A stretch of DNA of 64,000 bases from Vampirovibrionales bacterium (GTDB lineage Bacteria; Cyanobacteriota; Vampirovibrionia; Vampirovibrionales; JAJTHC01): the NCBI GenBank assembly GCA_035285025.1, contig JAYKHY010000036.1:1-64000 (forward strand), read 5' to 3'. Position 1 is the stretch's first letter; each line of letters opens with the position of its first letter. A model generated the notes under the pieces. That model was not told the DNA's origin. It was given only the letters and a program-made list of their open reading frames with translations, and did no database searches. Both the position numbers and the translations under genes were made by a program. Below are positions 4,578-47,146 of the stretch, piece by piece.

Positions 4578-7500
4578 ATGTCTGAAAATATTTCAGATGC
4601 TAAGTTAGGTACGTTAAAGGTCGGTAACCAGACCCAGGTCACGACGGCCAAGGGTCAAAAAGTTTTAGTGAACACCGCTGACCATGAATCCGTGTTTGCC
4701 AAGCAGAACGGTGACGAAACCCTTGTGAGCGTTTTTAGCTCTGATGACAAGGCCAAAATTTGTCATACCAAGCCCAGCCGTGAACTTTCGATTCAAGGCA
4801 AAAAAGGCAATACCAAGGTGTACGCCGCGTTAAAACCGGACGAGCAAAAAAAACTGTATAACACCTTTAAAAAAACGAATCCCAATGATGATAGCAGCCT
4901 AACGCTGGCAACAATGTTGGGTGGAAAAAAGCAGGATGAAGATGCCTCTTTAGACAAGGCACAGAATAATTCAAGCGCGTTGCAGCAAAAAGTTCAGGCG
5001 ATGCTGGATACGTCCAAGCACAGCGTGCCCTTCCAGAATGAAAAAGGCCTGAACAAGGTGCAGCAGCAATTTGAGCAAGGCAAATTATCTTTGCCAGAAG
5101 CTGAGGCAAAAGCGAAGCAACTAGAAACAAAAAAGGTCGGGCTTTTAGGCGGTGCGCTGCGTGGGGCGTCGTTGGGCGTTGTGCGTAACGAAGGCACGCA
5201 AGAGGGCCTTGATAGCATGGCTGGCGACATGGCCGGTAGCATGGTTAGCGGCTTAGGGGTAAATGCATTGGTTATAGCTGGTGCAAGTAAATTATCTAAA
5301 GGGGCTAGCGGTAAAAAGAAGTTGTTACTGGCAGGCACGGTAGGTATTGGCTCTTCGATTGCCTCGGGGGTGCGTACCTGGCAGGATTCGCTTGCCAATG
5401 ATGGCAAAGTTGATGCAGCCGAAGGCTGGAACATTGCACTGCAAGCAGGCTCTGGGTTTATTGGCGGCGCTGCCGGCACTTTGCTTGGGGCGCATGCGGG
5501 CTCTAAATGGGGGCTACTGGGGGCTGCAGGTGCCGACGTGGCTTTGGGCAATGGGCTGGGTTTAGGTAGCCTTGCGGTTAGTAACCAGATAGCCGGACGT
5601 GATAATTTGCTTGAAGGCTGGGAGCAAACCGTTGCAGCCTCGACTGCGGGCTCCTTGGTGGGCACAGGCATTGGGGTCGCGAGTAATCATTTTTCGGGTA
5701 AAGCGCCTGAATCCAACTCTGAAGTTAATAACCGTGATGGAGTGACCGTTCCTGAAGGAAGCTTTGATGATAAACCGCAAGCGAGTCCCTCTTCAGATTC
5801 GACGCCGATTAAAACGGGAGCATGGACTGAACAAGAAACTAAGGAAATTGAAGCCAGTACAAAAAGACTAGAAGAACTTAATGAAAGACTTCGTAACAGG
5901 AATAAGTCCAGCTTAAATGATGCTGACACTGTCTCTGACCCATGGGACGGGGCTGAACCTTCAAAAAGTTCACCGGACGTTAAAACGCCTAAGCCGGAAG
6001 CGAGTGCGCCAAAACTGTTGCCGCCAGCCGGCGAGCTGAGGTTAAACGGGCGTGAGCCGCTTTTAAGTGCGCTCACCAAGGCGGATCCTAAAAGCGCAAC
6101 CAGCGCCCTAAAAATTAACCCTACGTTCGATCTTTCAACGCAAGAGGGTCGCGCCGCCGCTTATCTGTCTGTTTTAAAGGATGTTGATCCGTCTGATTCA
6201 TCTAAGCCGCCAACCAGCGGAAAACTGAGCCAGGCGGGCGATGCACTGGTCGAGATTGCGCGCAATGAGGGTAATACAAACGAGGAAATTCGGACCTTAC
6301 TAACAAAAGCAAAAGACTATTACGAACGCGCGGGCAAGTTGGCGCAAAACGAGCAAACAATCCCTGGCGCGCAATCCGGTGGCAGTGACCTAGAGGCGCC
6401 AGCCAATAATGATATTGCGGCGCAGAACCTGAAAAAAGCGCGCGAGCTTAAGCGTTTGTTAAACGAACCGGTTGAATGGCAGAATGACCCGAAACAAGCG
6501 CAGCTTGAGCCCACCACGATTGATGTGCCCTATGAGGAAATTCCGGGCAACGTGCTCGAGGCCTCAAACGCGCAGGTTGAGCGCATACAAGCCACACCGG
6601 ATGCAGCCTTTGGTGCAGACGAAGCGGATACCGTGATTGCGCAACTAGAGCAAGCGCACGCCAAGCAGCACGCGCTGCAGGAAGGTAAACGCATTGCAGG
6701 CCTGCCCGAGCAAACGCAGCAAAATCTGCTGAAGCGGGCGCAACAGCAATCGCCCGAAAAAAATCTACGCACTGTAGCCGATCTGATTCGGGAGGTTAGC
6801 GAGCCAAAATCTAACGAGGCTGGTCAAGCTTTGCTGCCTGGCGCGCCGTCGCTGATGACCAGCCGCTCGTTGGTGCAAGAGCTTAGCAATGATTTGGCGG
6901 TAAAGCTCCGTCAGGGGCAGCTTTCGCCCCAAAAAGCCATCGAGTTGTCGGGCGCGCTGATTCGCCGCGCCGAGTCTCGGCCGGCCTACCGGATTGCTGA
7001 CAGTGACCTGCTGCCTGTTCGGCAATTGCAGGCTGACGCGATTCAGGCCAAACTAGGCGAGCTTGAGGCGCAAGCTCGTGCTAATGGCCCCAAAACGCGC
7101 TCGTTGCCGCCCGCGCAGTGGGATAAACCCATGCTCAACAGCGCCATAGATCAGTTTATTGCCGCGCAAGAAGCCAAGCTAAAGCTGAGTCCTAGCGACC
7201 CAACGGCAACAAAAGCCATTGCCGATGCCGAGGCGTTCAAGCGCAAGCTTAATCACGCTAACTTAAACGCTGCAAATGATTCGAGCGCGCTTGCGCTCAC
7301 GGAAAGTGATCACGCGACGTTGCAGGCATTGATTGACCATAAGCGCGAGGCACGCAATGTGAACGTCACGGAAAAACTCAACCAAGAGATTGATCATCTG
7401 CGCAGCATTGAGCGCTACGGCAGCCCAGACCCTGCACGGGCTACGGCGCTTGAACCGGGCGTGCTGGACGCGCCCACGTTGCACGGGTATTTGGATGCGT

Positions 7501-9809
7501 TTATTGGTGCTAAAGAAGCACAACGCACCGCCGGCGTAGACGTGCCACAAGCCAATCTGGCGATTCAGCAGGCAAAGGCGTTTCAGGATAAGCTTATTCT
7601 GGCAACTGGCGATGAAGCTGCGATTCAAGAGTTAATTAAACGCTTAAAATCAGATATTGAGCCTTCACGTAATCCGCAAATCAATCGGCAAAGTTCGACG
7701 ACACACAAGCAAAATATATTAGAGCTTATTAACTTAGCAGAAGCAACACAAACAGCCATTATTAAAAATGAGCCGCGCCCTATTGCGGACGTTGATACGC
7801 TGCTGGAACAAAGCGGCTTGGCCAAAGCCGCCGCCCAACAGCCCGTGCCCGAAGCCAACTGGAGCCAGGTGCCCGATGCTGAGCGCCCCAAGGTGTTTCA
7901 GGATGGCTACAACACGCCCGGCCCGAACGTGATTCAGGATTGGTGGAAAAACCGAGGCAATAAACCAGCCGAAGTCGCCACGGCAAAAGATACGCCCCCT
8001 GCTGATGTCTCTGACGCGACGCCAAAAGCGCTGCCTGAAAAACAGGGCTTTAACTGGCGCAATCCGTTTGGCTGGAATAAAAAACAAGCGCCCGCCGTTG
8101 CGCCTGAGAGCACGCCGCCAACGCCAGAGCCCTCAACGGAGTCTGCATCAACTTACGAGGCACCCAACCCTTGGGATGATGCGCCTCCGGCCTCGGATCC
8201 AACAATACCGGTTAACGCAGAAGTCGTGAGCGAAACGGTTCCTTCAACTGCGACCGCGAGTGAGTCTGACCTACCCCAACTGCCGCCTGCAGCGGGGTTA
8301 GATTGGTCGCGGCTGAGAAACCCCTGGCAAACAGTCAAAAACGATATTCAAGCGACGACCGCGACGCTGCGCGGCTTAGGCGACTCAGAATTGGGCTTTA
8401 TTGAGCGTAACAGACAAAACGCGCTAGCGCTGGATGCCGCTGGCGCGCCTAAAGCCGCCGAAGCGGTGGTTACAGAAAGTTCAGCCGAGCCCGCGCCCGC
8501 TAACGTTGAGCCTGCGCCTACGGCCGAGCCTGTGCCACAGGCCGCGCCCAGCGCGTCGCGATTCCCGGAAGGGTATCAGGCGTCGGGGAAATCGGGTAAG
8601 GCAATGCTTGCGTTGGATAAAGCGCTCAAGATTCAGGCCGATGGCATCTCGATGATGCCCAGCTTGCGCCTGACCAAAAATTACGAGGCGGCGTCTAAAG
8701 GCCTAACGAAGCTAGGTGTGAATCTTTCGGCCGATGAGTTAAGCGCGGCGGCGAAGAAAAACCAGCTGAGCGAGGTTATTTTTAACGAGCTTTACGCCAA
8801 AAAATACCCGCAGGCAACTACGGAGATTAACAATAGTGGCGCGCCTTCGCAAAATATAGCGGCTGAGCCTGTCAAGGCCGAGCCGGAGTCTATCTCCGTA
8901 CCTGGCACACCTGTCGCTGATGAGACTCATACAGAGTCTTTTCAGCCAAACACACTCATAGGGGATCTTCTTAATGAAAACAAGCCAGAGCAAGCATTGG
9001 AAGTAGCTCGACAAGCTTTATCGGTAGAAACCGATCCTCAATCTGTTGATCACTTAAATCAGCGCATTCAGGAAGCAAACCTACAAATCGAGGCCCAACA
9101 AAAAGTGCAGGCTGAAGCTGATGCAAAAGAGCAAGAAGCCAAGCAAAAAGCTCAGGCTGACGCGGCTGAAAAAGCGCAAGTGGCTGCAAAACAAGCCCAA
9201 ACAGAAGCTTCCGAAAAAGCGCGCCTAAAAGCCCCACAAAAAACGCAAGAGGCTAAATCGCATCAAGTTTCGCGTGCTCAAGCGGCCGAACAAATTTATC
9301 AGCAACTCTTGGCTGACTTTGATACAAAAATAGCGGAAGCGTCAGAGTCTGGATTTATCAATAAGGATAAAATTGCTCAAGATAAAGCGAGATTTGAAAA
9401 TTCAATGTCTTTGGACCAGTTGAAAGCAGCCGTTAAGTCTCCTGATGCCTTTGCCTCTTTTGTAGTGTCTCAAGATAATGATCGCGTTAACGGCGGGCGT
9501 AATATTTTTGCGGCCTATCAAGCGATTTTGGCTAACTCACAGACCAAAATACCATTACCCGAGCCCGTTGCAGATATTCTTGTGCGCAGGCTTACGCTAA
9601 GTAACCCGACTGCAAACAGAGCTGATCTTAAACAACTTTTGATGCAAGACGCAAATTTAACCCCAGAGACGCTTGAACAGTATTTTAAAAAGTATGTAAA
9701 CTCTATTGAATCAAGTGAGGATGGCATTGCGTGGAAAGCAAGTGAGGGTGGCTCACGCAGCATCTATGAGATGAATAGTTTAGACGAGTCGCCTGCGAAT
9801 GTGCTTTAA
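4578..9809 (+). CDS. Giant hypothetical protein (1743 aa) with a Gly-rich hydrophobic segment and long coiled-coil/low-complexity regions
   Basis: Uninterrupted 5.2 kb ORF with a GAGGGTGGG RBS. Residues ~190-340 form a glycine-zipper-like hydrophobic region (GGxxG / AGxxG). Downstream are Pro/Ala/Glu-rich and KAQAD coiled-coil tracts. Confidence 0.8.
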   Translation: MSENISDAKLGTLKVGNQTQVTTAKGQKVLVNTADHESVFAKQNGDETLVSVFSSDDKAKICHTKPSRELSIQGKKGNTKVYAALKPDEQKKLYNTFKKTNPNDDSSLTLATMLGGKKQDEDASLDKAQNNSSALQQKVQAMLDTSKHSVPFQNEKGLNKVQQQFEQGKLSLPEAEAKAKQLETKKVGLLGGALRGASLGVVRNEGTQEGLDSMAGDMAGSMVSGLGVNALVIAGASKLSKGASGKKKLLLAGTVGIGSSIASGVRTWQDSLANDGKVDAAEGWNIALQAGSGFIGGAAGTLLGAHAGSKWGLLGAAGADVALGNGLGLGSLAVSNQIAGRDNLLEGWEQTVAASTAGSLVGTGIGVASNHFSGKAPESNSEVNNRDGVTVPEGSFDDKPQASPSSDSTPIKTGAWTEQETKEIEASTKRLEELNERLRNRNKSSLNDADTVSDPWDGAEPSKSSPDVKTPKPEASAPKLLPPAGELRLNGREPLLSALTKADPKSATSALKINPTFDLSTQEGRAAAYLSVLKDVDPSDSSKPPTSGKLSQAGDALVEIARNEGNTNEEIRTLLTKAKDYYERAGKLAQNEQTIPGAQSGGSDLEAPANNDIAAQNLKKARELKRLLNEPVEWQNDPKQAQLEPTTIDVPYEEIPGNVLEASNAQVERIQATPDAAFGADEADTVIAQLEQAHAKQHALQEGKRIAGLPEQTQQNLLKRAQQQSPEKNLRTVADLIREVSEPKSNEAGQALLPGAPSLMTSRSLVQELSNDLAVKLRQGQLSPQKAIELSGALIRRAESRPAYRIADSDLLPVRQLQADAIQAKLGELEAQARANGPKTRSLPPAQWDKPMLNSAIDQFIAAQEAKLKLSPSDPTATKAIADAEAFKRKLNHANLNAANDSSALALTESDHATLQALIDHKREARNVNVTEKLNQEIDHLRSIERYGSPDPARATALEPGVLDAPTLHGYLDAFIGAKEAQRTAGVDVPQANLAIQQAKAFQDKLILATGDEAAIQELIKRLKSDIEPSRNPQINRQSSTTHKQNILELINLAEATQTAIIKNEPRPIADVDTLLEQSGLAKAAAQQPVPEANWSQVPDAERPKVFQDGYNTPGPNVIQDWWKNRGNKPAEVATAKDTPPADVSDATPKALPEKQGFNWRNPFGWNKKQAPAVAPESTPPTPEPSTESASTYEAPNPWDDAPPASDPTIPVNAEVVSETVPSTATASESDLPQLPPAAGLDWSRLRNPWQTVKNDIQATTATLRGLGDSELGFIERNRQNALALDAAGAPKAAEAVVTESSAEPAPANVEPAPTAEPVPQAAPSASRFPEGYQASGKSGKAMLALDKALKIQADGISMMPSLRLTKNYEAASKGLTKLGVNLSADELSAAAKKNQLSEVIFNELYAKKYPQATTEINNSGAPSQNIAAEPVKAEPESISVPGTPVADETHTESFQPNTLIGDLLNENKPEQALEVARQALSVETDPQSVDHLNQRIQEANLQIEAQQKVQAEADAKEQEAKQKAQADAAEKAQVAAKQAQTEASEKARLKAPQKTQEAKSHQVSRAQAAEQIYQQLLADFDTKIAEASESGFINKDKIAQDKARFENSMSLDQLKAAVKSPDAFASFVVSQDNDRVNGGRNIFAAYQAILANSQTKIPLPEPVADILVRRLTLSNPTANRADLKQLLMQDANLTPETLEQYFKKYVNSIESSEDGIAWKASEGGSRSIYEMNSLDESPANVL

Positions 9810-10458: not shown

Positions 10459-10722
10459 ATGGCACAGAAGAAAGGCGCGGGTTCTACAAAGAACGGGCGC
10501 GATAGTCAAAGTAAACGTCTGGGCGTCAAAAAATTTGGCGGTCAGCAGGTGCTTGCAGGCAATATTCTGGTGCGTCAGCGTGGCACCAAGTTCCACGCGG
10601 GGGCCAATGTGGGCATTGGTAAAGATGACACGTTGTTTGCCCTGACCGAAGGCGTTGTGAGCTTCCAGAAGCAAAAAACCCGCTGCAAAGTGCACGTGTT
10701 GCCGGTTGCAGAAGCGGTTTAA
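10459..10722 (+). CDS. rpmA: 50S ribosomal protein L27
   Basis: [24 protein letters not shown]... is the canonical L27 sequence. Confidence 0.95.
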
Positions 10723-10798: not shown

Positions 10799-10839
10799 TG
10801 ATTGGCCAGTTGGCCGCAAGCGGCGTTAATATCTGCGCC
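10799..10839. repeat. 41-bp direct repeat, copy 1 (displaced ancestral 3' end of rlmN)
   Basis: Identical over 41 bp to ~13058-13098 inside the rlmN 3' end. Read on the minus strand it would encode ...GADINAACGQLANQ-VA-stop. Confidence 0.85.
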
Positions 10840-13057
10840 GCTCGCTAGGGATGTTAGCTAGCTGGACGGTGAAGAATCATTGGCCGCGGGCGATTGCAGG
10901 CGGTTAATGATACCCGTCTTGATTTGATCTCGAAGACCTCCATTATCGGTTTTTGCGCCTGATTCTGCGGCTGATAGCATGCCGGTCAGCTTTTCGGAAA
11001 GAAGCACGCTCATCAGGCCTTCCATCAGGTTGCCGCCATCGGAGCCCCCCATCGAAATTTTGGGGACAACATCGACTTTAGATTGCTCAATGGCTTCAGC
11101 AAAGCGCTGCATTACCTGTTGCACCAGCTGGAATTGCGGCCCGCCGTAAGCGGCCACTTGTTCTTCTATGGCCATGGCTTGCGCAATCCCGACGCGGGCG
11201 GCGCGCTAGGCTTCGGCGTCTGCAATCAGCTTGATTTTTTGCGCGTCGCCATCGGCCACAATGCTAATACGGCTTGCTTCGGCTTCTGCAAGCGCTTTAA
11301 TTTGTTGCGCCTGTTGCTGCGCGCGCGCCAGATCGGCTTTACCTTGGTTACTTTGGACGTTAATACTGATTTCTGACTCGGTCAATAGGGTTTGCTGCTT
11401 GGCCCGGGCCTCGGCCTCGCGGAGTTCTTTCTCTTTGACGGCCGCTTTTTCTTGCCGGTTGTAGGTTTCCACCTGTTCCTCGGCCACTTGTCTGGAGCGC
11501 AACTGATTTAGGATCATCTCGATTTGCTGATCGCTCTCTTTAGAGCCTGGCGTGCCAATGAGTACTTCTTCCAGCTCAAGATTATAGTGCGCAAAGCGCT
11601 CGCGCATCTCGTTAAGTGATTGCTGCTGGATAAAGCTTCTTTCCTGGATCAGCTGGATTAAGGTTCTGGTTTGGCCCACGTTTTTAAAATAGGCGGCCAC
11701 CATCGGGTCCAGCGTTTGCTCAACCAGGCGCTTAATATCGCCAAAACGTTGAATGACCAACGGCGCTTTACGGTAGTCAATATGGATAACCACCGACAAC
11801 GGCAGCGTCGGTTCAAACGCATCCTTGGTAATTAAATTGACTTCAGACAAGTTTTCATCCAGTCGGTGGGTCCCGGCCTGGTTGCTGATCCATTTTAAAA
11901 TAATGTTGGTGGTTGGCACCATAATTATTTTGCCGGCGTAGGTGTTAAACGCGTATTTACCAGGCAATAACGGTAGATTCCAAACGCCTCGATAGCCTTT
12001 GCCGACCATCTCGCCATGGTTATAATCTTTGCCGCTCAGGTCTTCGCCAATCTCGCCTGTATACGAGACGACCACGCCGGCATTGCCAACCTCTACAATT
12101 GTTTTAGGGATCATCTCGACGGTGGCAAACAGACGGTTAATGTAATATGTACCCTCGACCAGCACTTGCAGCTGGCGGCCGCGTTTTCCACCGGCAGCAA
12201 GGAATTTGTCCGGATCCTGAAAGTTGTTATGGTAAACCTCGGGCACGGTTTGGTCGTCGCCCACCGTTTGCGCAATAATTTCGTTAGGCTCTAACGAAGG
12301 ACCGTCGTGTACCGTAACTATGCCAACCAGATCGTCAGCGTCTTTAATTACAATTGGCGAAAACCCGTTACGCTCTAGAATGAGCTCTCTCATCCGCTCG
12401 AACATCTCGACTTCGTTTATGTCCAATGGTAAATAATATAAATGATCTTCCGTCAGAATCACGAACTGGGCCAGGTTTATGGCATAGGTGCCTTCGCGCA
12501 AGATTAGTCTTTGTGGGCCTTTTTGCCCACCAGCTTTAAGAAACACTTCTGTGTCCTGAAAATCTTTTGCAGAAATATTGGCCGCTAGCGCTTGCGTAGA
12601 AGGTAGCGAATGGCCGTCTCGGGCAAAGACGTAGCCAATTTTACCCTGAGGAATGGTGACCAGGGGCATAATATGCACCCGGTATTGCAGTGGCACCAAA
12701 AAGTGCCACCCCCCCCTTAAAATATGAGGTTGGAACCCAGCCTCGCCACCAAGGGCAATAAGTCCAGATTTAACAGACCCATTAAGGCTAAAAAACTTTT
12801 CGACAATGCCCACCCTGGCGTTTGGAATATAGCGAACCGTTAATGCGATTAGACTCAGCACAAGTACCGTGAGGATTGTTAGATAGGGATGAGCCAACAC
12901 AAAATCAGTCATTTGACATAGCGCTCCTGTTGCTGTTAATACCTTACGGGCGGGGGATATGGCGCTATTAAAGCAAGGCTCGAAGCGTTCTGCATCCTAT
13001 ATCAAGAGGCTTGCTCAAAATTAGAAAAAAGTTTGCTATGCAACATTCGAAGAGTGT
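10840..13057 (-). mobile_element. 2.2 kb islet inserted at the rlmN 3' end, carrying a flotillin gene and bounded by 41-bp direct repeats; no integrase
   Basis: Bracketed by exact 41-bp duplication of the rlmN terminus. Islet GC is lower (~45-50%) than the backbone. The gene-proximal copy provides a new rlmN tail (NQHSSNVA-stop versus NQVA-stop). Confidence 0.45.
10858..12912 (-). pseudogene. Flotillin / SPFH (band 7, YqiK-like) gene interrupted by an in-frame TAG
   Basis: The 568-aa SPFH/flotillin ORF (11206..12912) ends ...ADAEA-TAG. The same frame continues RAARVGIAQA-MAIEEQ... into ORF 10858..11175. Both ORF ends are congruent mod 3, so this is one gene with a premature stop at ~11206-11208. 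Confidence 0.6.
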
Positions 13058-14226
13058 TGATTGGCCAGTTGGCCGCAAGCGGCGTTAATATCTGCGCCAC
13101 GCTCCAGGCGAACCGTCACTTTACGTCCGTAACCGCTCACAATCTCTCGAAACGTCTCGATGGCTTTAGGGCTCGAGCGTTTTAAGGCTTCGCCGCCCGG
13201 CGGCAGCAATTGTGCCGCAATCGGGTTATACGGAATCAGATTCACGTTGCATTTAAGGCCTTTTAACTGCTGCGCCAGCATGTGGGCTTGGGTCGGGCTA
13301 TCGTTAATGCCCGCCAGCATAATGTATTCAATCGTCAGGCGCCTGCGGGTGGTGTTTACATAGTGGTGCAGGGCCGGCAGCAGCTCTGCGATGGGGTATT
13401 TGGCGTTAATCGGCATAAACGCGCTGCGCGTGGTGTCGTCGGGCGCGTGGAGCGAGACGGCCAGCGTGACGGGCAGGGCTTCTTGTGCCAGTCGATAGAT
13501 GCCCGGTACTATCCCTGCGGTCGAGATAGTCATGCGGCGCATGCCGACTTCGGCCGACTGGTTGAGCAGCATCATGGCCGGAATCACGTTATCCAGATTC
13601 AGGAGCGGTTCGCCTTGGCCCATAAACACGATGTTTCTGACTTCTGCTTGCGCTAAATGTTGCACGTACAGGTATTGGTCCACGATTTCGGCGACGGTGA
13701 GCTGGCGTTTAAAGCCCAGTTTGGCTGTGGCGCAAAAGTGGCAGCCAACGGCACAGCCGGCTTGGCTGCTAATGCACGCCGAGAGCGTTCCGCGCTCCTG
13801 GTAGGGCATAAGTACAGATTCGATTCTATAGGGCGACGCGTTTGCCGGCGATGCTGCACCAGTCGCGGGGCCTGGCAAATTTGCTGGCGACGCCAGTTCA
13901 AACAAAAACTTTTGCGTCCCGTCCCGGCTTTGCTCGCGGGTGTGTAACGTTAGGCAGCCGATTTGCGGGAATTTTTCGGCCAACTTGGCCCGAGTGCTTT
14001 TTGCCAGATTGCTCATGGCCTCGTAGTCTCGAACGCACTTGACATAAAGCCATTGATGCAATTGCTCAGCCCTGAAAGCCGGTTCTTCCATCGATTGCAT
14101 TAAGGCTTGCAGGCTTGTCAAATCATGCCCAATCAAGTAGCTGGGTTCGGGTCGTATCTCGTGTTGCGCTTCGGGTTGGCGTTTTGGACTGTCCGGTTTC
14201 ATCATAGCCTTATCAGTATGCGGCAA
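13036..14226 (-). CDS. rlmN: 23S rRNA (adenine2503-C2)-methyltransferase RlmN (radical SAM)
   Basis: CAVGCHFC radical-SAM cysteine motif and overall RlmN/Cfr family similarity. The C-terminal 14 codons lie in the 41-bp repeat. Confidence 0.9.
   Translation of the reverse strand: MPHTDKAMMKPDSPKRQPEAQHEIRPEPSYLIGHDLTSLQALMQSMEEPAFRAEQLHQWLYVKCVRDYEAMSNLAKSTRAKLAEKFPQIGCLTLHTREQSRDGTQKFLFELASPANLPGPATGAASPANASPYRIESVLMPYQERGTLSACISSQAGCAVGCHFCATAKLGFKRQLTVAEIVDQYLYVQHLAQAEVRNIVFMGQGEPLLNLDNVIPAMMLLNQSAEVGMRRMTISTAGIVPGIYRLAQEALPVTLAVSLHAPDDTTRSAFMPINAKYPIAELLPALHHYVNTTRRRLTIEYIMLAGINDSPTQAHMLAQQLKGLKCNVNLIPYNPIAAQLLPPGGEALKRSSPKAIETFREIVSGYGRKVTVRLERGADINAACGQLANQHSSNVA
13058..13098. repeat. 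41-bp direct repeat, copy 2 (functional rlmN 3' end)
   Basis: Exact match to 10799-10839. Confidence 0.85.
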
Positions 14227-32919: not shown

Positions 32920-33424
32920 GATGTATGTTAAATGCGGTCATGCGTAACGTCAGGATAAATGCAGGCCTGCGCTCTGGGCTTAAATGCTACCGAAAAAATG
33001 GGTTAACACTTGAGCGGTGGTGCGGGCTGAGTACTTTTAATAAGCCAACTGAAGCTGGATTTGTGCGACAGAATAGACCAAATGTAACGGTTTTTTAATG
33101 CAGCGTTTAAAAGCCTCCAGAATCTGGGCACGCGTTCGACACTCATAACACAGGGAAACATTAAACGTTGACTCGCGCCGAGTCGTTCAAATAAATGCGT
33201 GGTGGCGGCGCAGGGTTAATTTTGCGAGTGCGTTTATAGTGAATAACTCGCGCGGGTTTGGGTCTCGCGGCTGGGTGATCGTCAGTTTTTGTATAAATTT
33301 ATTGCGCGGGTTTTTTCGGGTCAGGCTTTTTAGGCAAAAAGCGACAGGAGTAGATGTGGTTTTACCCATTAATTCATCGCGTGCGTATACCCCTAATGTT
33401 CAGCTTTCGGCTCAATTTCGGTTT

Positions 33425-34579
33425 ATGTCGCAAGGTGATTCCGCCGAGGCGAATGCCGGCGTTTCGGCTTTATCAAAGGCGTTAAACACCAATGCGTTTA
33501 ATCCTTTGGCCGGAAGCTCAAAATCGAGCGGTTTTTCGGGCGTGCGTTCGGCCCGCCAAGCGAATGCGCTGCAGCTAACGCAGTTACAATCCGAGCTCGC
33601 CGAGACGCTAACCGATCCGCTTGCTTCGCGGGAAAATAGTTTGAGCAAAACCTCGGTGCTCGCCACAGAAGCGGAAACCGAGACGGTAGAAACCGCTGCC
33701 GTTGATACGCAGGCGTTAGAAGCCCTGCAAGCCGAACTCAAGCAAGTGGGTCAGCAGCAGCAAAGCCTTAACGGCGCGTTATCTCAGGCGCAGGCTCAGT
33801 TGGCGGCCTATACGCAGCCTGTACCCGCTAAGCCCGAACCCGCCAAGCCTGAAGAGCCTACAGAAAAACCCGAACCCGTCAAATTAGAGCCCGCCAAGCC
33901 TGAAGGGTCTACGGTAAAACCTGAGCCCGCTACGCCCGAGCCCGCCAAGCCCGAAGGGGCTAAGCAAAAGCCCGAGTTGCCCGAGAAAGCGCCTAAAAAG
34001 GGATTGGCCTTAGGGTTAGAAAAACAGGTGCAAGCTGAACCGAAAGCCGAGGCTAAAAACGAGCCTAAACTTGAAGCCAAGGCTGAAGTAAAAGCTGAGG
34101 CTAAAAACGAGCCTAAACTTGAAGCCAAGGTTGAAGCCAAGGTTGAAGCCAAGGTTGAAGCCAAGGCTGAAGTAAAAGCCGAAAAAGCCACCGAAGTTAA
34201 AGCTTCGCCGAAAAACGACGGCTTAAACGCGCTGAAAGATACTTTGGCTAGTTTGAATCAGCAATTGGGGGGCTTGGCTGCAAAACAAGCTTATTTAACC
34301 GAGCAGCGCGCCATTGTTTTGGGTAAAACCCAAATCCGTACCGAAACTGTCCTGGTGACGCGTGAGCACACGCAATATTCCAGCGAATCCAGCCTGGGGG
34401 GTGGTGCTTCGGGCAAGGCGCTTTCGGTGGTATTAGGCAAATTGGTTGCGCATTACGCGCACGATTTGCGCGATAGCGCCGAGGCCTCGAAAAATACGAC
34501 CACACAGTTTTTATCTACGCCCGCCTCGGAAGGGTTTGTGAGCGAGTTAAAACACGAAACGCGAAGCTTGCTGGTTTAA
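33425..34579 (+). CDS. Hypothetical coiled-coil/repeat protein (PEPAKPE and EAKVEAK tandem repeats)
   Basis: Start at MSQGDSAE. Internal 12-bp and ~45-bp tandem DNA repeats encode Lys/Glu/Ala/Val repeats. Confidence 0.6.
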   Translation: MSQGDSAEANAGVSALSKALNTNAFNPLAGSSKSSGFSGVRSARQANALQLTQLQSELAETLTDPLASRENSLSKTSVLATEAETETVETAAVDTQALEALQAELKQVGQQQQSLNGALSQAQAQLAAYTQPVPAKPEPAKPEEPTEKPEPVKLEPAKPEGSTVKPEPATPEPAKPEGAKQKPELPEKAPKKGLALGLEKQVQAEPKAEAKNEPKLEAKAEVKAEAKNEPKLEAKVEAKVEAKVEAKAEVKAEKATEVKASPKNDGLNALKDTLASLNQQLGGLAAKQAYLTEQRAIVLGKTQIRTETVLVTREHTQYSSESSLGGGASGKALSVVLGKLVAHYAHDLRDSAEASKNTTTQFLSTPASEGFVSELKHETRSLLV

Positions 34580-40012: not shown

Positions 40013-43000
40013 ATGCCAGATGTTTTAATTGCACACGAGCCGGTTTTAAATTTCGCCGCAGTTAAAGCCATGGCGCCCGCCGGCGCGTGGCGACGCGGCT
40101 ATAACTATTTTAAAGAAGATCGCCGCATCCAGAAAATCGGCCTGAGCGAAACAGGCGTTGAGGCGAAAATCAAGGGCAATTTTAAAAAAGCGTACACCAC
40201 CACGCTCAAATTTAACGATCCCACCTGTAGCGAATACCCGTTTGAGCCTGATTGTAGCTGTCCGCTCAATGAGCCGTGGTGCAAACACGCTGTTGCGGTG
40301 GCGTTGACCGCCGCCGAGAACAACCTTTGGGAGGCTTACTGGCAGCTCCCCATCGAGGACGACATGGCCGCCGATGAGGCGCTCGATGATTTTGAGGGGC
40401 GTTACCAGTTTTGGTTGGATGAAAACCGCAAGCCCAAGTTTTTCGCGATTCGTGCCCTTGACCGGCGCAACGGCAAAGCGGTTTACCAGAGCGAGCAGGT
40501 GCTTAAAAAGGCGCTGAGCCAGCCGGGTGGCATTAACGAGGCGCAGCGCCGCGAGATGAGTATTTTTCAGGCGCTCGTCAAGCTGGATCAGCTTAATTCT
40601 GGCGGGGCTCAGGGCTGGTTTGTGGTGCCAAAATCTAAGCTGGGCGAGTTATTGCCGCTGCTTAGCCAGTTGGAAGAAGTCCGCGATAAGGATACCGGCG
40701 CGCGGCTGGTGTTTCATAGCGACCCGCTTAAGTTGCAGTTGTCCGTGAATGCCTCGATGGCGGGTAACGTGCAGGTTGCGCTGCATTGGCTGCGGGAGCG
40801 CCCGCGCGATGTGTATCCGCTGGAAGAACTCACGCTTTACAGCCGTGATTTGCCCTGGGGACGCTATAAGCATCATCTTTTTCCGCTTAAAAACACCCTG
40901 AATCAGTTGCCTGGGCATTTAACCAAGGCGACGTTCAGCGATATTCGGGATGCGGACGGCGGCAAATTTATGTACGAGGAGCTGCCAAGGCTCCGTAAAT
41001 TGGTAGAAGTCGAAGGCACCGAGCAGCTAGACAAGCTTCGGCTGGAAAAACGCCCGCCCAAAAAGATTCTTTCGCTGGAACTCATCGATCCGGCCTCGTT
41101 GCGGCTGCGTTTAAGCTTGTCGTTCAGTTACGATGGCGTCGAGGTACCGTTTAGCAAATCTGCCCCCGAGACGCCCTACGTGATGGTCGTCAAGAAAAAA
41201 GAAGAGCAGCTTTATTGGGTTAAGCGTGATTTGCGCGAAGAGCACGCGGCGTATAAAAAACTGATGGAAAGCCGGCTGGAGCCCTTGCAAGGGAGTTATT
41301 TCCAGGCCGAAGGTGATGACGCCATTGATGCCGCTAACCTGGCCGAAAGCAAACTGTTTGGCAAGGATTGGGAAACTAAAACCGTCGGGCCGCATTCGCT
41401 CGAGGCGCTCAAAGTGTCTAAGCATCCGCTTAAAATCCGGGCCGAAATTGACTTCTCGAAGGATTCGGTTGATAGCTTTGAGGCCGAAATCGATTGCACC
41501 ATTGGCAAACAGCGGATGGACCTGGACGATGTGCAAAATCATCTGATGCAAGGGAAAAAATATTTTTACCTGTCGGGTGCGGGGTTTGTCGAAATTCCGC
41601 TGGCGGATATTTTACAGTTTGGCAAAACCATTCAGGCGTTTGATGCGGTTACCGTGGGCCGGGATCGCTATAAAATCCAGACGTTTAAAGCGGGCCTGAT
41701 TGCCGAGCTGGTGGATCAGGGCGTTAAGCTTAAAATGACGGCCAAGTTCCAGAAATTCTGGGATGTGATTGCTTCGACCAGCGACATGGAAGAGCTGGAC
41801 GTGCCCGAGAATGTTCACGCAGAACTTCGGCCGTACCAGAAACGCGGCTTTAACTGGCTCTGGTTTTTGTACAGCTATGGCCTCAACGGGATTCTGGCGG
41901 ACGACATGGGCTTGGGTAAAACGCTGCAAGCGCTTACCGTGTTGCAGCAGGCTAAAAACACGCACGGCCAACGCCCTAGCCTGATTGTTTGCCCGACCAG
42001 CATTGTATTTAACTGGCAAAACGAAATCGCCCGTTTTACGCCCGATTTAAAGGTGATTAACCTGACGGGGAGCAACCGCTACGGGTTGTACAAAAAAATT
42101 GCCGAAGCCGACATTGTGATTACCAGTTACGCGTTGCTGCGGCGCGATATTAACGCGCTGAAAAACTATCCCATGCGCTACGTGATTCTGGATGAATCGC
42201 AGAATATTAAAAACTGGCAGTCGCAAACGGCGCTTGCTGCAAAAAGCCTCCAGGCCGACCACCGGTTGGCGCTTTCGGGGACGCCAATTGAAAACCGGCT
42301 GAGCGAGCTCTGGAGTGTGTTTGACTTTTTAATGCCCGGCTTTTTGTACGAACCCGAGGTGTTTCGGCAAAAGTATACTGTGCCCATCGAGGAGCGCGGC
42401 AACCGCGACGCGGAACGCCGGCTTAAAAAACAGGTGTTTCCGTTTATTTTGCGCCGTATGAAGCAAGACGTGGCGAAAGATCTGCCGCCCAAAATCGAGA
42501 ACGTCGCCTACTGTGAGCTGACCGACGCCCAGCGCCAGCGTTATCTGGATATTCTGGAAGAGACGCGCAACGAGGTGTTTAACGCCATTAATAAAGATGG
42601 CGTGCAGGGCAGCCAGCGGAGTATTTTTACCGCACTGACGCGTTTGCGCCAATTGTGCTGCGATCCACGGCTGCTCTCGGATGAGCTTTCGGGCGGGCTT
42701 AAGGAATCCGGTAAATTTGAGCTGATGAAAGACCTGCTGCAAGAGATTGTGGCCGAAAACGGTCGCGTGCTGCTGTTTAGCCAGTTTGTCGAGATGCTCA
42801 AGCTGATTCGGGCGTGGCTGGATAAAGTGGGCATTAAGTACGAATACCTGACGGGCGAGACCAAGGACCGCGAAGGGGCCGTGAACCGCTTTAACAGCGA
42901 TGCGAGTATTCCGATCTTCCTGATTAGCCTAAAGGCGGGCGGCACGGGGCTTAACCTGACCGGGGCCGACTACGTGATGCATTACGACCCGTGGTGGAAC

Positions 43001-43222
43001 CCGGCTGCGGAAGATCAGGCGACCGACCGGGCGCACCGCATTGGCCAGACCAAAACCGTGTTTGTGTACCGCCTGATTGCCAAGGGCACGGTGGAAGAAA
43101 AAATTATGGCCCTGAAAGAGCGCAAGCGCGATCTCGTGGACTCGATCATTGCCGCAGACCGCAGCATGGGCAAGTTTCTCACGCTGGAAGATCTCAAAGA
43201 GATTCTGTCGCCAGGGTTTTAG
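40013..43222 (+). CDS. SNF2-family helicase with N-terminal SWIM zinc finger
   Basis: CxC...CKHAVAVAL SWIM motif, SNF2 ATPase motifs (ILADDMGLGKT, DESQNIKN) and helicase C domain. The 3' terminal 69 bp are duplicated downstream. Confidence 0.9.
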   Translation: MPDVLIAHEPVLNFAAVKAMAPAGAWRRGYNYFKEDRRIQKIGLSETGVEAKIKGNFKKAYTTTLKFNDPTCSEYPFEPDCSCPLNEPWCKHAVAVALTAAENNLWEAYWQLPIEDDMAADEALDDFEGRYQFWLDENRKPKFFAIRALDRRNGKAVYQSEQVLKKALSQPGGINEAQRREMSIFQALVKLDQLNSGGAQGWFVVPKSKLGELLPLLSQLEEVRDKDTGARLVFHSDPLKLQLSVNASMAGNVQVALHWLRERPRDVYPLEELTLYSRDLPWGRYKHHLFPLKNTLNQLPGHLTKATFSDIRDADGGKFMYEELPRLRKLVEVEGTEQLDKLRLEKRPPKKILSLELIDPASLRLRLSLSFSYDGVEVPFSKSAPETPYVMVVKKKEEQLYWVKRDLREEHAAYKKLMESRLEPLQGSYFQAEGDDAIDAANLAESKLFGKDWETKTVGPHSLEALKVSKHPLKIRAEIDFSKDSVDSFEAEIDCTIGKQRMDLDDVQNHLMQGKKYFYLSGAGFVEIPLADILQFGKTIQAFDAVTVGRDRYKIQTFKAGLIAELVDQGVKLKMTAKFQKFWDVIASTSDMEELDVPENVHAELRPYQKRGFNWLWFLYSYGLNGILADDMGLGKTLQALTVLQQAKNTHGQRPSLIVCPTSIVFNWQNEIARFTPDLKVINLTGSNRYGLYKKIAEADIVITSYALLRRDINALKNYPMRYVILDESQNIKNWQSQTALAAKSLQADHRLALSGTPIENRLSELWSVFDFLMPGFLYEPEVFRQKYTVPIEERGNRDAERRLKKQVFPFILRRMKQDVAKDLPPKIENVAYCELTDAQRQRYLDILEETRNEVFNAINKDGVQGSQRSIFTALTRLRQLCCDPRLLSDELSGGLKESGKFELMKDLLQEIVAENGRVLLFSQFVEMLKLIRAWLDKVGIKYEYLTGETKDREGAVNRFNSDASIPIFLISLKAGGTGLNLTGADYVMHYDPWWNPAAEDQATDRAHRIGQTKTVFVYRLIAKGTVEEKIMALKERKRDLVDSIIAADRSMGKFLTLEDLKEILSPGF
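43154..43222. repeat. 69-bp direct repeat, copy 1 (current helicase 3' end)
   Basis: 66/69 identical to ~44700-44768. All differences are synonymous (TTT/TTC, CTC/CTG, TAG/TAA). Confidence 0.85.
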
Positions 43223-43231
43223 AAGGGGCTC

Positions 43232-43303
43232 ATTTTAAGATAAGGCGTTATCGTAAAATGAAACCTGTTCTTATTTTAAGATAAGGCGTTATCGTAAAAT
43301 GAA
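43232..43303. repeat. Two 31-bp direct repeats (ATTTTAAGATAAGGCGTTATCGTAAAATGAA) 10 bp apart, each with a GATAA-N4-TTATC inverted repeat, immediately upstream of fic
   Basis: Exact duplication read from the sequence. Likely an operator pair or junction relic. Confidence 0.7.
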
Positions 43304-43313
43304 GGAATAGGTT

Positions 43314-44489
43314 ATGAAAAGAAGTCTACAAGGACGATTTGTCAAAACTTCTTACGCTGGAGAAGTTGTTCAAGCATTTCTACCTAATCCGCTACCCAGC
43401 ATGGAAGATATTCAATGGACAGCAAATTTACGCACAAAATTTGATAAAGCGTTGGTCTGTTTGGGTCGGCTGGATGCCATAAGTAGAATTTTGCCCAGAC
43501 CCGATTTGTTTATTTTTACTTACATTCATAAAGAAGCACTTTTATCTTCAATAATAGAAGGTACGCAATCTTCTCTTTCTGAATTAATATTGTTTGAGCA
43601 AGATGCCTATTCAACGAATATTGCAAAAGAGTTTGATGATCTAACAGAAACCAGTAACTATATAAAAGCGTTTGATCATGCAATTAAACGTTTAACAGAA
43701 GGATTTCCGCTAAGCTTAAGATTGATTTGCGAAATTCACGAGCAATTGCTGGCCTCAGGTCGTGGAAGTCAAAAAAATCCTGGAGAGTTCAGAAGAAGTC
43801 AGAATTGGATAGGGGGAACTAGACCAGGGAACGCTTTTTTTGTTCCGCCACCTTTTAAAAACGTGCCTGAGCTAATGGGGCAATTGGAAGATTTTTTGCA
43901 TGACAAATTTTTTGAAACGCCCATTTTGCTAAAAGCAGCCTTGGCTCACGTTCAGTTTGAAACCATACATCCTTTTTTAGATGGCAATGGACGTTTAGGT
44001 CGCCTCTTAATTACATTGCTTTTGTATAACGATAAAATTTTATCTCAGCCTATTTTGTATTTGAGCTTATATTTTAAACTTCATCGTACACGCTATTATG
44101 AATTACTTAATATAGTTCGGTATGAAGGTGATTGGGAAGTTTGGCTGGATTTCTTTGCTGAAGCAGTTATTTACTCAAGCGAGCAAGCTGTTAACGATGC
44201 TCATCGACTTTTAACCTTGTTTGAACAAGATAGATTAAAGATTTCTGGTTTAGGAAGAGTCTCTGAATCAGTAAAGCTCGTTTTTAATACGTTTGAAAAA
44301 TTTCCTATACAAATAGCTAAACGCGTCACTAATATTACTCAATTAACACCTGCTACTGTAAATAAAAGCTTAAAGGAACTCGTACATCTCAACATTTTAC
44401 GGCAACAAGGAGTACATAACAGACATCGTATTTACGTCTATTCTAAATATATGGACATTTTAAATGAAGGAACTGAGTTAAATGAATAA
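43314..44489 (+). CDS. fic: Fic-family protein (class II, N-terminal inhibitory motif) with C-terminal winged-helix domain
   Basis: HPFLDGNGRLGR Fic active-site motif. SSIIEG matches the (S/T)xxxE(G/N) inhibitory motif N-terminal to the Fic core. Confidence 0.9.
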   Translation: MKRSLQGRFVKTSYAGEVVQAFLPNPLPSMEDIQWTANLRTKFDKALVCLGRLDAISRILPRPDLFIFTYIHKEALLSSIIEGTQSSLSELILFEQDAYSTNIAKEFDDLTETSNYIKAFDHAIKRLTEGFPLSLRLICEIHEQLLASGRGSQKNPGEFRRSQNWIGGTRPGNAFFVPPPFKNVPELMGQLEDFLHDKFFETPILLKAALAHVQFETIHPFLDGNGRLGRLLITLLLYNDKILSQPILYLSLYFKLHRTRYYELLNIVRYEGDWEVWLDFFAEAVIYSSEQAVNDAHRLLTLFEQDRLKISGLGRVSESVKLVFNTFEKFPIQIAKRVTNITQLTPATVNKSLKELVHLNILRQQGVHNRHRIYVYSKYMDILNEGTELNE

Positions 44490-44699
44490 GATATACTATT
44501 TGAAATTTTATTTACAGGCTAAATAATCTCTCCATGTGCACGAGCTGCGGGGCAGCGTTTGAGCACCGTGAACGAGCTGTGTATAGTAAAGTGCAAGGGT
44601 CTGAGGAGCTTTAGAGAGGATTTCTCCTCAGTTCTTTTAACAAAACAGGGTATAGCTTAACATTTCTGCGATTAAAGCACCACTCACACTCTTTGAGAT

Positions 44700-44768
44700 G
44701 CAGACCGCAGCATGGGCAAGTTCCTGACGCTGGAAGATCTCAAAGAGATTCTGTCGCCAGGGTTTTAA
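44700..44768. repeat. 69-bp direct repeat, copy 2 (displaced ancestral helicase 3' end)
   Basis: See copy 1. Confidence 0.85.
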
Positions 44769-45152
44769 TAGGGTGTTTTCTTTTAGGTAAAGCTTGATGC
44801 TGTGTAATAACGTAGTCTAATGCTTAGGCCTTGATCTTTTTTTGAAAATTTTTTTCAGCATCAAAAAACTTAGTAGTTTTTTAACTTGCCTTTGCCTTGT
44901 AGGGTTGCTATGCTACTACAGCACCCGTTATAAATATAATGGTTGTAGGGCTTAAGAACCCTGAAGCAAGTGGTTAGGTATCTGACCATCAACTAGATGC
45001 CACCTTCCGGTTATGCCGGGAGGCGGCGTTTTATGTCCAGGCTTTTAGCTAAAAAGCGCCGCGGCCGTCTTGTTTCGGTTTCTTAACTCCCGGCTCCTCT
45101 AAATTTAAGAGGGGCTTTCGTGATTTTAAGAACGTGAAGCAAGGTCAAAATA

Positions 45153-46097
45153 ATGAGCACGCCAGCAGTGCTATTTATATTTTTTAGGCGTCAAGGCGTG
45201 GCGCTTAAAGTGTTTGAACGCATTGCCGCTGCGAAGCCAGCAAAGCTTTATTTGGCGTGTGATGGCCCTAGGGTTCAGCGCCCAGATGAAGCTGAAGCCG
45301 TTTTTGCACTCAGGGAGCTTATTTTAAGCAGAATCGATTGGCCTTGCGAGGTTTTTACTAATTTTAGCGATACTAATGTCGGGTGTGCGATTCGAATATC
45401 TTCTGCAGTGACTTGGCTTTTTGAGCATGAATCTGAAGGCATTATTCTTGAAGAAGACTGTATGCCAGATCCTTCATTCTTTGACTTTTCTCGCGTGATG
45501 CTTGAGCGCTACCGCGATGATGCTAGGGTAATGCATATTGCTGGGTATAACTGTTTTGACCCAAAAAAAACATATAGCGATGGGGATTATTTTTATACAC
45601 GTTCGCCATTGATTTGGGGCTGGGCTGGCTGGCGTAGGGCTTGGCAACATTACGATTTAAAAATGTCGACGTATCCGGTTTATCGTCAATCAAACGTATT
45701 TAAGTTCTACAAGCATCAGCCAGCTTTTAAGCTGATTGGCGCGTTGAACGAATATTTAATGAACCGCGTTTATCAAGAAAATAACGGTGTTAAGCCAAGA
45801 ACCTTTGCTTATCCGTGGGCGTATGCAGTTGCTATTCAAAACGGGCTTTGTATTAACCCACGCGTTAACTTAATTACTAATTTGGGGGTAGGGTCAGATG
45901 CGACGCACCAGCGTTTAGCAATAGGAGAAGATGTTAACCGGCCTACAGCGGCGTTAACAAGCTATAACGCGCCCAGTGTAATGCTGCCCAATGCCGATGC
46001 CGAACGCTATATGTATCAAAAACATCACGAATATTCTGTGAGCGGGTTGTTTAAAAAAGTGATTACTAAATTCTGGCTTAAATTAAAGGCCGCTTGA
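45153..46097 (+). CDS. Putative glycosyltransferase (HlpA-like / GT-A-like)
   Basis: Weak family-level resemblance to capsule/LPS-locus glycosyltransferases annotated as hemolytic protein HlpA-like. Low GC relative to the backbone. Confidence 0.45.
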   Translation: MSTPAVLFIFFRRQGVALKVFERIAAAKPAKLYLACDGPRVQRPDEAEAVFALRELILSRIDWPCEVFTNFSDTNVGCAIRISSAVTWLFEHESEGIILEEDCMPDPSFFDFSRVMLERYRDDARVMHIAGYNCFDPKKTYSDGDYFYTRSPLIWGWAGWRRAWQHYDLKMSTYPVYRQSNVFKFYKHQPAFKLIGALNEYLMNRVYQENNGVKPRTFAYPWAYAVAIQNGLCINPRVNLITNLGVGSDATHQRLAIGEDVNRPTAALTSYNAPSVMLPNADAERYMYQKHHEYSVSGLFKKVITKFWLKLKAA

Positions 46098-46921: not shown

Positions 46922-46960
46922 TGTGCATTGCATACAATTGATTGCGTGTTTAGTAAAATT

Positions 46961-47047
46961 CGGAGCGGGGGAGATTCGAACTCCCGGTCGGCTTTCACCG
47001 ACACAGACTTTCCAGGTCTGCACCTTAAACCACTCGGACACCGCTCC
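46961..47047 (-). tRNA. tRNA-Ser (anticodon GGA), long variable arm
   Basis: Minus-strand sequence GGAGCGGTGTCCGAGTGGTTTAAGGTGCAGACCTGGAAAGTCTGTGTCGGTGAAAGCCGACCGGGAGTTCGAATCTCCCCCGCTCCG. Acceptor stem pairs, CT-GGA-AA anticodon loop, TPsiC GTTCGAATC, no encoded CCA. Confidence 0.85.
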
Positions 47048-47146
47048 AGCGACGTGTGAGGTTCTCTCTCTACTTTAATACAAACATGCCACACCGTAGC
47101 GTGCGGCGCGCGTAGCCCTTTTGGGACAATAACCGATACTCTTAAA

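Follow-up and report, generated by a model that had tools for sequence, protein, structure and literature searches.

A fic gene enclosed by a duplicated helicase gene end in an uncultured Vampirovibrionales genome: a possible scar of site-specific integration

How can a foreign gene settle at the 3' end of a conserved bacterial gene and leave that gene undamaged? The question is raised by a SNF2/SWIM helicase gene and the fic gene that follows it in a 64-kb stretch of DNA (positions 1 to 64,000 of contig JAYKHY010000036.1, hereafter the window), which is part of a 68.6-kb contig in the metagenome-assembled genome (MAG) of an uncultured Vampirovibrionales bacterium. A preliminary description of this DNA had noted that the last 69 bp of the helicase gene recur about 1.5 kb downstream, beyond AT-rich DNA carrying only a Fic toxin-like gene. 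Every particular of the duplication was confirmed, and so was the content of the DNA between the copies. The best explanation that we can offer for this islet, and one to which we give about an even chance, is that it is the scar of a site-specific integration into the helicase 3' end, left by an element that has since decayed or whose recombinase was supplied in trans.

The duplicated helicase end and the DNA it encloses

A repeat search of the window measured the duplication as a direct repeat of 74 nt with 70 identical positions (95%) and a spacing of 1546 nt (Table 1). The proximal copy is the in-frame end, 22 codons and the stop, of the helicase open reading frame (ORF), and both copies translate as ADRSMGKFLTLEDLKEILSPGF followed by a stop. 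The three differences within these 69 nt (23 codons) are the TTT/TTC, CTC/CTG and TAG/TAA exchanges described before; all lie at third positions and are synonymous, and the remaining difference is one A/T just 3' of the stop codon. The reading frame of the helicase is kept by the surrogate end, and the length of the protein equals that of its orthologue in locus L001. The distal copy had been read as a displaced gene end, and this holds: an in-frame TGA-GAT stands ahead of it and it falls in no plus-strand ORF of at least 40 aa.

No third copy of the repeat was found in the 64 kb of the window, and in the 1.87 Mb of loci fetched for comparison its matches are confined to orthologous helicase ends. 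It is therefore not a dispersed repeat, the alternative against which the duplication had to be checked.

From the purely synonymous divergence it had been argued that the insert brought with it a homologous but foreign gene end. This proposal is reasonable and has modest support. Synonymous-only differences have P=0.012 for random changes and P=0.053 under a model of in-place duplication, so that the arrival of a homologous gene end is modestly favoured over that model, and an indel at the rlmN gene described below points the same way. As to which copy is resident and which incoming, codon usage and the comparison with L001 both gave mixed results; neither copy is marked as foreign by its codon usage.

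The helicase gene is a core gene of Vampirovibrionia, and its orthologues in other Vampirovibrionales are 55-87% identical. Among about 186,000 species genomes and a set of 5.8 billion proteins the closest helicase was P0002, the one encoded in L001, with 87% protein identity over the full length and 93% over the C-terminal 349 aa. Scans of genome and metagenome contigs with the helicase C-terminus gave 126 loci and were complemented by an exact-protein look-up; no sequence of the same species was present in the genome, metagenome or protein collections searched. No empty site was found, because these collections hold no helicase nearer than 87% protein identity. The four genes upstream of the helicase are syntenic with L001, but the synteny ends at the helicase stop codon and the downstream region of L001 differs. 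Both fic and the second helicase-end copy are absent from L001-L003 and L082.

Residues 571-636 of the helicase gave a partial match to the NCBIfam model 'sll1366 family intein-prone helicase', which suggests that this family may also be the target of other selfish insertions.

The DNA between the two copies (1.47 kb) has a GC content of 0.33-0.41 and one substantial ORF, fic, whose GC content at third codon positions (GC3) is 0.27 against 0.66 for the helicase. The nearest relatives of the Fic protein, about 60% identical at most, are found in Chlorobium, Desulfobulbaceae and other phyla. We call the insert foreign because of this difference in GC3, the distant phyla of its relatives and its absence from L001-L003.

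The product of fic carries the catalytic motif HPFLDGNGRLGR, which fits HPFx[D/E]GNGRxxR, and the inhibitory motif SSIIEG, which fits (S/T)xxxE(G/N). Sofic has been described as a toxic AMPylase acting in abortive infection; downstream of its gene lies that of a small antitoxin, reported in E. coli as the 47-aa anti-Sofic (PMC12249575). The cargo of the islet resembles this system in matching the PADLOC profile from end to end and in having both motifs, but it differs in its distance from any homologue and in its score with the NCBIfam SoFic model NF046030 (141 bits, under the equivalog cut-off of 550), and its role in defence is putative. The two small ORFs of the islet tail (44534-44660) sit where the anti-Sofic protein was reported in E. 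coli.

Ahead of fic stand two copies of a 34-nt palindrome, and only 6 nt separate the helicase stop codon from the first. The repeats were considered as arm sites for a recombinase and rejected, since SoFic homologues outside islets in three other lineages have the same palindrome, ATTTTA-N15/16-TAAAAT, at position -63; elsewhere in the 1.87 Mb of fetched DNA it has only two matches. Because they also precede independent SoFic homologues, the palindromes are most likely the predicted promoter/operator of fic itself and not recombination sites.

The islet thus has the appearance of a self-contained one-gene module that was acquired horizontally. The neighbours of the SoFic homologues in other genomes are toxin-antitoxin genes or a type I restriction system, not a helicase or rlmN gene, and the homologues examined have no flanking repeats. 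A source for the islet was sought in plasmids, where no DNA similarity extends beyond the conserved Fic motif, and in phages, where none was found; viral contigs contain no relatives of the Fic protein.

Table 1. Positions in the window of the helicase gene, its two repeated ends and the parts of the islet
Feature	Positions	Strand	Description
SNF2/SWIM helicase, 1,069 aa, intact	40013-43222	+	Pfam SNF2-rel_dom, Helicase_C, SNF2_assoc, SWIM
Proximal repeat copy (attL-like)	43154-43227	+	Last 22 codons, TAG and 5 nt; functional helicase end
Two 34-nt palindrome copies, 41 nt apart	43229-43303 (43229-43262, 43270-43303)		Each ATTTTA-N16-TAAAAT; hairpin z-score -7
SoFic-type Fic protein, 391 aa	43314-44489	+	Pfam Fic_N and Fic; PADLOC SoFic E=9.5e-110, full profile
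210-nt islet tail	44490-44699	+	Small ORFs 44534-44614 (26 aa) and 44559-44660 (33 aa); terminator-like hairpin 44616-44629
Distal repeat copy (attR-like)	44700-44773	+	Displaced, non-coding helicase end; in-frame TGA-GAT ahead; junction in unitig L081

Duplicated gene ends at rlmN and in other phyla

A second islet of the same architecture had been reported in the window, and we find it as a 51-nt repeat of the rlmN 3' end (10799-10849 and 13058-13108) that brackets a SPFH/flotillin gene. The functional rlmN end reads ...GADINAACGQLANQHSSNVA and stop (...ANQHSSNVA), whereas the displaced end reads ...GADINAACGQLANQVA and stop (...ANQVA); the two are separated by an in-frame 12-nt indel, which gives the functional end four extra codons (HSSN). 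As both ends are readable and the four-codon indel is in frame, the comparison argues strongly that a working version of the gene end came in with the insert. The displaced end is followed by a terminator-like hairpin, which is at the same time next to the end of a convergent 87-aa ORF (ending at 10722), a putative rpmA.

An in-frame stop near 11176-11205 divides the SPFH gene (10858-12912, minus strand) into ORFs of 568 and 105 aa, and the gene is either a pseudogene or the victim of a sequencing error. Its homologues, of about 680 aa and 70-83% identical, are spread across many phyla; they are not next to a helicase or rlmN gene, and those examined have no flanking repeats.

A block of perfect identity of exactly 41 nt is found within the repeats of both islets (43181-43221 at the helicase and 13061-13101 at rlmN). 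This may be a coincidence, or it may reflect a length set by gene conversion or by a minimal requirement for homology.

The last 150 nt of the helicase orthologue were then compared with the rest of its own locus in all 126 fetched loci. At L025, L073, L094 and L095, which belong to one Kiritimatiellae rumen lineage, the last 36-40 nt of the helicase recur 1.5-3 kb downstream, with no gap between this second copy and the stop codon of an AAA-ATPase gene; a close relative from Kiritimatiellae (L045) is without both the ATPase and the second copy. The myxobacterial locus L058 probably carries an equivalent duplication, a 37-nt copy of 89% identity that lies 4.2 kb downstream, beyond an FG-GAP gene, and whose changes are mostly non-synonymous. 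In a control screen of 1,130 gene ends from all the loci and the window, downstream 3'-end duplications were seen only at these helicases and at the rlmN of the window. With the window excluded, such a duplication was seen in 2 lineages among the helicase loci, which number about 100, and at none of the about 950 other gene ends (P of roughly 0.01). Since the equivalent duplications flank other cargo at the four Kiritimatiellae loci, and probably at L058, these comparisons suggest that the helicase gene end is a recurrent attachment site.

In Kiritimatiellae the region downstream of the helicase looks like a hypervariable, cassette-like array. Several copies of an intergenic repeat of about 200 nt are present (L073:11160-15833; also L025 and L045), and a promoter-like element of 40-50 nt (...ATATGGTATAATAC...) stands ahead of successive genes.

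An element in another member of Vampirovibrionia, L143:10400-17198, where the helicase is 61% identical, was considered as a further case and rejected: judged by eye, it lies just downstream of a tRNA-like sequence about 200 nt past the helicase stop, rather than at the helicase end. This element carries a Toprim/AAA_25 primase and many small ORFs, and a unitig of another sequencing run breaks at about the tRNA-like sequence.

Routes by which the insert could have arrived

We propose that a small circular DNA would have been inserted by a single crossover of the Campbell type into the helicase 3' end. On the incoming DNA, the SoFic gene and its own operator and promoter would have been accompanied by a surrogate for the last 22 helicase codons. 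After a crossover in the shared segment, one copy would complete the helicase, like an attL, and the other would be pushed 1.5 kb downstream, like an attR. The empty site would then read as the helicase body directly joined to ...TAATAGGGTGTTTTC, and the excised circle as ...CTCTTTGAGAT-[repeat]-GCTCATTTTAAG. A single crossover with a circle that carries a surrogate end is favoured because the repeat starts abruptly and runs to the stop, its differences are silent or in frame, and foreign DNA lies between the copies. An abrupt start within the gene and an end 5 nt past the stop codon are expected of a repeat when one arm must rebuild only the coding end. From this arrangement we infer that the intermediate was circular, which way the event ran and what kind of enzyme acted; this enzyme would most likely be a site-specific integrase no longer encoded in the islet, either lost by decay, so that the element is 'grounded', or acting in trans on a non-autonomous element.

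Several results weigh against this explanation. Its main weakness is that none of the four or five islets seen keeps a recombinase. The enzyme had been proposed as something to look for, and the search gave nothing in the window: the 43 main ORFs scanned with Pfam include no integrase, transposase or other recombinase and yielded ordinary chromosomal genes (hisG, rlmN, tgt, accC, hemA, a LexA-like protease, accA, ssb and rpsF among them), and none was detected in the islet ORF or in the 210-nt tail, whose six-frame fragments were compared with Pfam at E values up to 10. The equivalent islets of the other phyla encode none either, and among 131 ORFs found a short way past helicase orthologues, no integrase family occurs in more than one. 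In viral contigs the attachment cores of the helicase, rlmN and Kiritimatiellae repeats have zero exact matches. The 6 nt between the helicase stop and the fic operator leave little room there for a deleted integrase. Moreover, two decayed one-gene elements within 30 kb are a coincidence that has to be accepted, and no motif is common to the repeats of both islets, so that one site-specific enzyme for both is unlikely.

A query of viral contigs with the helicase C-terminus returned only an unrelated match of 25%. Other candidates were tried and rejected. A transposon would leave an identical target-site duplication of 2-15 bp and have inverted repeats and a transposase, whereas the repeat here is 74 nt long and imperfect, with no terminal inverted repeats and no transposase. 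An integron cassette does not fit either, as the window has no IntI and the islet ends no attC-like inverted repeat. Finally, a nearby tRNA-Ser gene was considered as the true attachment site, but no partial copy of the tRNA occurs anywhere in the window.

A tentative alternative, possible though in our opinion doubtful, dispenses with a dedicated recombinase: DNA in which a helicase end already stood beside fic would have recombined with the chromosome through 40-70 nt of homology. This could have happened by host homologous recombination, by RecA-independent recombination between short repeats, or by homology-facilitated illegitimate recombination with an unequal second junction. Such a route would agree with the lack of a recombinase in all four or five islets and with the fact that the repeats of the two window islets are unrelated in sequence, yet both have a perfect block of exactly 41 nt; moreover, one general mechanism would cover different genes and phyla. 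A precedent is the H47 island of E. coli, which needs neither RecA nor any of the 16 site-specific recombinases of strain K-12 for its excision and integration, and which has extended imperfect direct repeats and no recombinase of its own (PMC5426353). This small island differs from the islet in its size (13 kb) and in its production of microcin; its repeats are not known to be a duplicated gene end, and its mobility was shown experimentally, whereas the islet is known from sequence. Nevertheless, a homology-driven insertion needs a donor with the cargo already beside a helicase end, which leaves the first origin unexplained, and the SoFic and SPFH homologues that were examined show neither that position nor flanking repeats. 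It also gives no reason why helicase ends should be enriched over about 1,000 other gene ends, and recombination over 40-70 nt is inefficient.

We consider it unlikely that the repeat was made in place, which would require foreign DNA to have entered a replication intermediate or a staggered break of some length at a point 69 nt ahead of the stop codon, with fill-in that duplicated the host's gene end and later divergence of the copies. The two copies are indeed 95% identical and of host-like composition while the cargo is very AT-rich, codon usage marks neither of them as foreign, and the mostly non-synonymous changes of the distal copy at L058 are those expected of a decaying copy. However, all three coding differences at the helicase are synonymous, for which this model gives P about 0.05, and at rlmN both ends remain readable across an in-frame 12-nt indel. 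Repeats of 40-74 nt far exceed known target-site duplications, and they end at the stop codon in every case, unlike an unselected staggered cut; terminal inverted repeats are missing as well.

A more speculative idea, which we regard as improbable, is that small recombinase-less units or 'end-replacement cassettes' carry single defence or accessory genes together with a surrogate 3' end of a conserved host gene and are inserted by an unrecognised activity, acting in trans or provided by the host. The helicase end would be preferred in at least three phyla, and the present genome, with two islets in 64 kb, would be unusually active. The preliminary description had gone in this direction and concluded that the genome likely hosts an uncharacterised system targeting the 3' ends of protein-coding genes. 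Such a system was neither demonstrated nor needed, given that the anatomy is that of known attL/attR sites, that integrase-less derivatives of known elements exist and that the repeats have no common motif.

There is independent support from reads for the right-hand junction of the islet. Logan unitig L081 (run SRR13425446) is 100% identical to 43274-44756 and so takes in fic and the tail as well as 57 nt of the distal copy. Its breaks fall exactly 30 nt inside a repeat, one in the 34-mer and one in the distal copy, which is how a k=31 graph behaves at true repeats; the junction between islet and distal copy therefore exists in the reads. One locus, L057, was discarded from the comparison as a scaffold-gap artefact that mimics an islet, with a 51-nt helicase-end duplication flanking a run of Ns (11039-11208). 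That two strain variants were joined through a shared 3' end, so that no single genome has the duplication, is very hard to believe: the contig does come from a short-read MAG, the read support covers the right junction and not the left, and L057 demonstrates that scaffolding can produce duplications at gaps, but the unitig breaks where a true two-copy repeat would break it, the copies differ, the sequence is free of Ns, unique sequence is reached from the left junction within one read length on either side, and four separately assembled Kiritimatiellae genomes share the architecture.

Known elements of similar anatomy and the neighbouring DNA

Integration into the helicase 3' end by a since-lost or trans-acting enzyme would place the islet among structures that are already known in kind; what is new here is the host, the target gene and the SoFic cargo. 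The textbook example of 3'-end integration with a surrogate end is e14 in the icd gene of E. coli, which leaves the fragment icdC (PMC13626634, citing Hill et al. 1989). Like phage 21 at the same gene, e14 uses the 3' end of a conserved gene, supplies the surrogate end and displaces a C-terminal fragment, and the differences between the copies are, as here, synonymous or conservative (PMC13626634). It differs in its 15 kb, its own integrase and its SOS-induced excision, whereas the islet has 1.5 kb, one cargo gene and no recombinase.

Derivatives without an integrase are also known. Cis-mobilizable elements (CIMEs) have lost the genes for integration and transfer and kept attL and attR (PMC5704250), and the islet is comparable in keeping attL- and attR-like ends without such genes. 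For CIMEs, however, the cognate integrative and conjugative element (ICE) is known in the same species, whereas for the islet no partner was found in viral contigs or in the downstream ORFs; the islet also differs in its host, a Vampirovibrionales MAG, and in its target, a SNF2/SWIM helicase. In islands of Prochlorococcus, degenerated tycheposons are recognised by extra partial tRNAs (bioRxiv 10.1101/2020.12.28.424599). These remnants resemble the islet in being integrase-less and in leaving partial copies of the target.

In staphylococci, the SCCmec and pseudo-SCC elements that sit at the rlmH (orfX) 3' end also have an rRNA methyltransferase gene as target, flanking direct repeats and recombinase-less derivatives, and so offer a parallel to the rlmN islet. 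SCCmec differs in that its repeats are of about 15 bp and its dedicated serine recombinase, Ccr, is known.

The integrative and mobilizable elements found in streptococcal ICEs of the Tn5252 family use a SNF2 gene as their specific integration target (PMC7168690). We rejected them as a parallel, since their serine recombinase inserts inside, and truncates, a methylase/helicase gene that is borne by the ICE and belongs to an unrelated family, and no surrogate end is involved.

What is unexpected is that integrase-less single-gene islets recur at the same helicase end in distant phyla, which makes this 3' end a recurrent insertion point. The locus shows how SoFic, an anti-phage or toxin module of a single gene, came to sit in the chromosome of an uncultured and little-studied lineage of predators while a core gene stayed undamaged. 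It illustrates cleanly, in a natural setting, how a surrogate gene end works, and as a marker it is useful when variable regions are to be located in genomes of Vampirovibrionia. If a recombinase were absent from the whole genome, such islets would indicate a route of gene acquisition that finders of mobile elements overlook, because these are keyed on integrases.

Downstream of the distal repeat copy, the segment 44774-46959 forms a second block of foreign composition (GC3 0.37-0.40). It contains a 314-aa ORF and a gene for a hexapeptide sugar O-acetyltransferase and extends as far as a convergent tRNA-Ser(GGA) gene (46960-47048). The 314-aa ORF (45153-46097) had been named as a glycosyltransferase, an assignment that we could not uphold, as it matches no family in Pfam, NCBIfam or PADLOC.

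Outside the islet, between the distal repeat copy and this ORF, a structured 90-nt element (45014-45103, plus strand; fold z-score -2.1) resembles the Rfam small RNA family sRNA-Xcc1 with 34 bits (E=5e-4), below the gathering score of 53. We take this family to be one associated with integrons.

Elsewhere in the window a long ORF of 1,743 aa (4578-9809, plus strand) has no Pfam family at an E value of 1e-5 or better. Another ORF without a Pfam match (33239-34579) contains tandem repeats of 51 nt and 12 nt at 33818-34182, which presumably encode a low-complexity repeat region.

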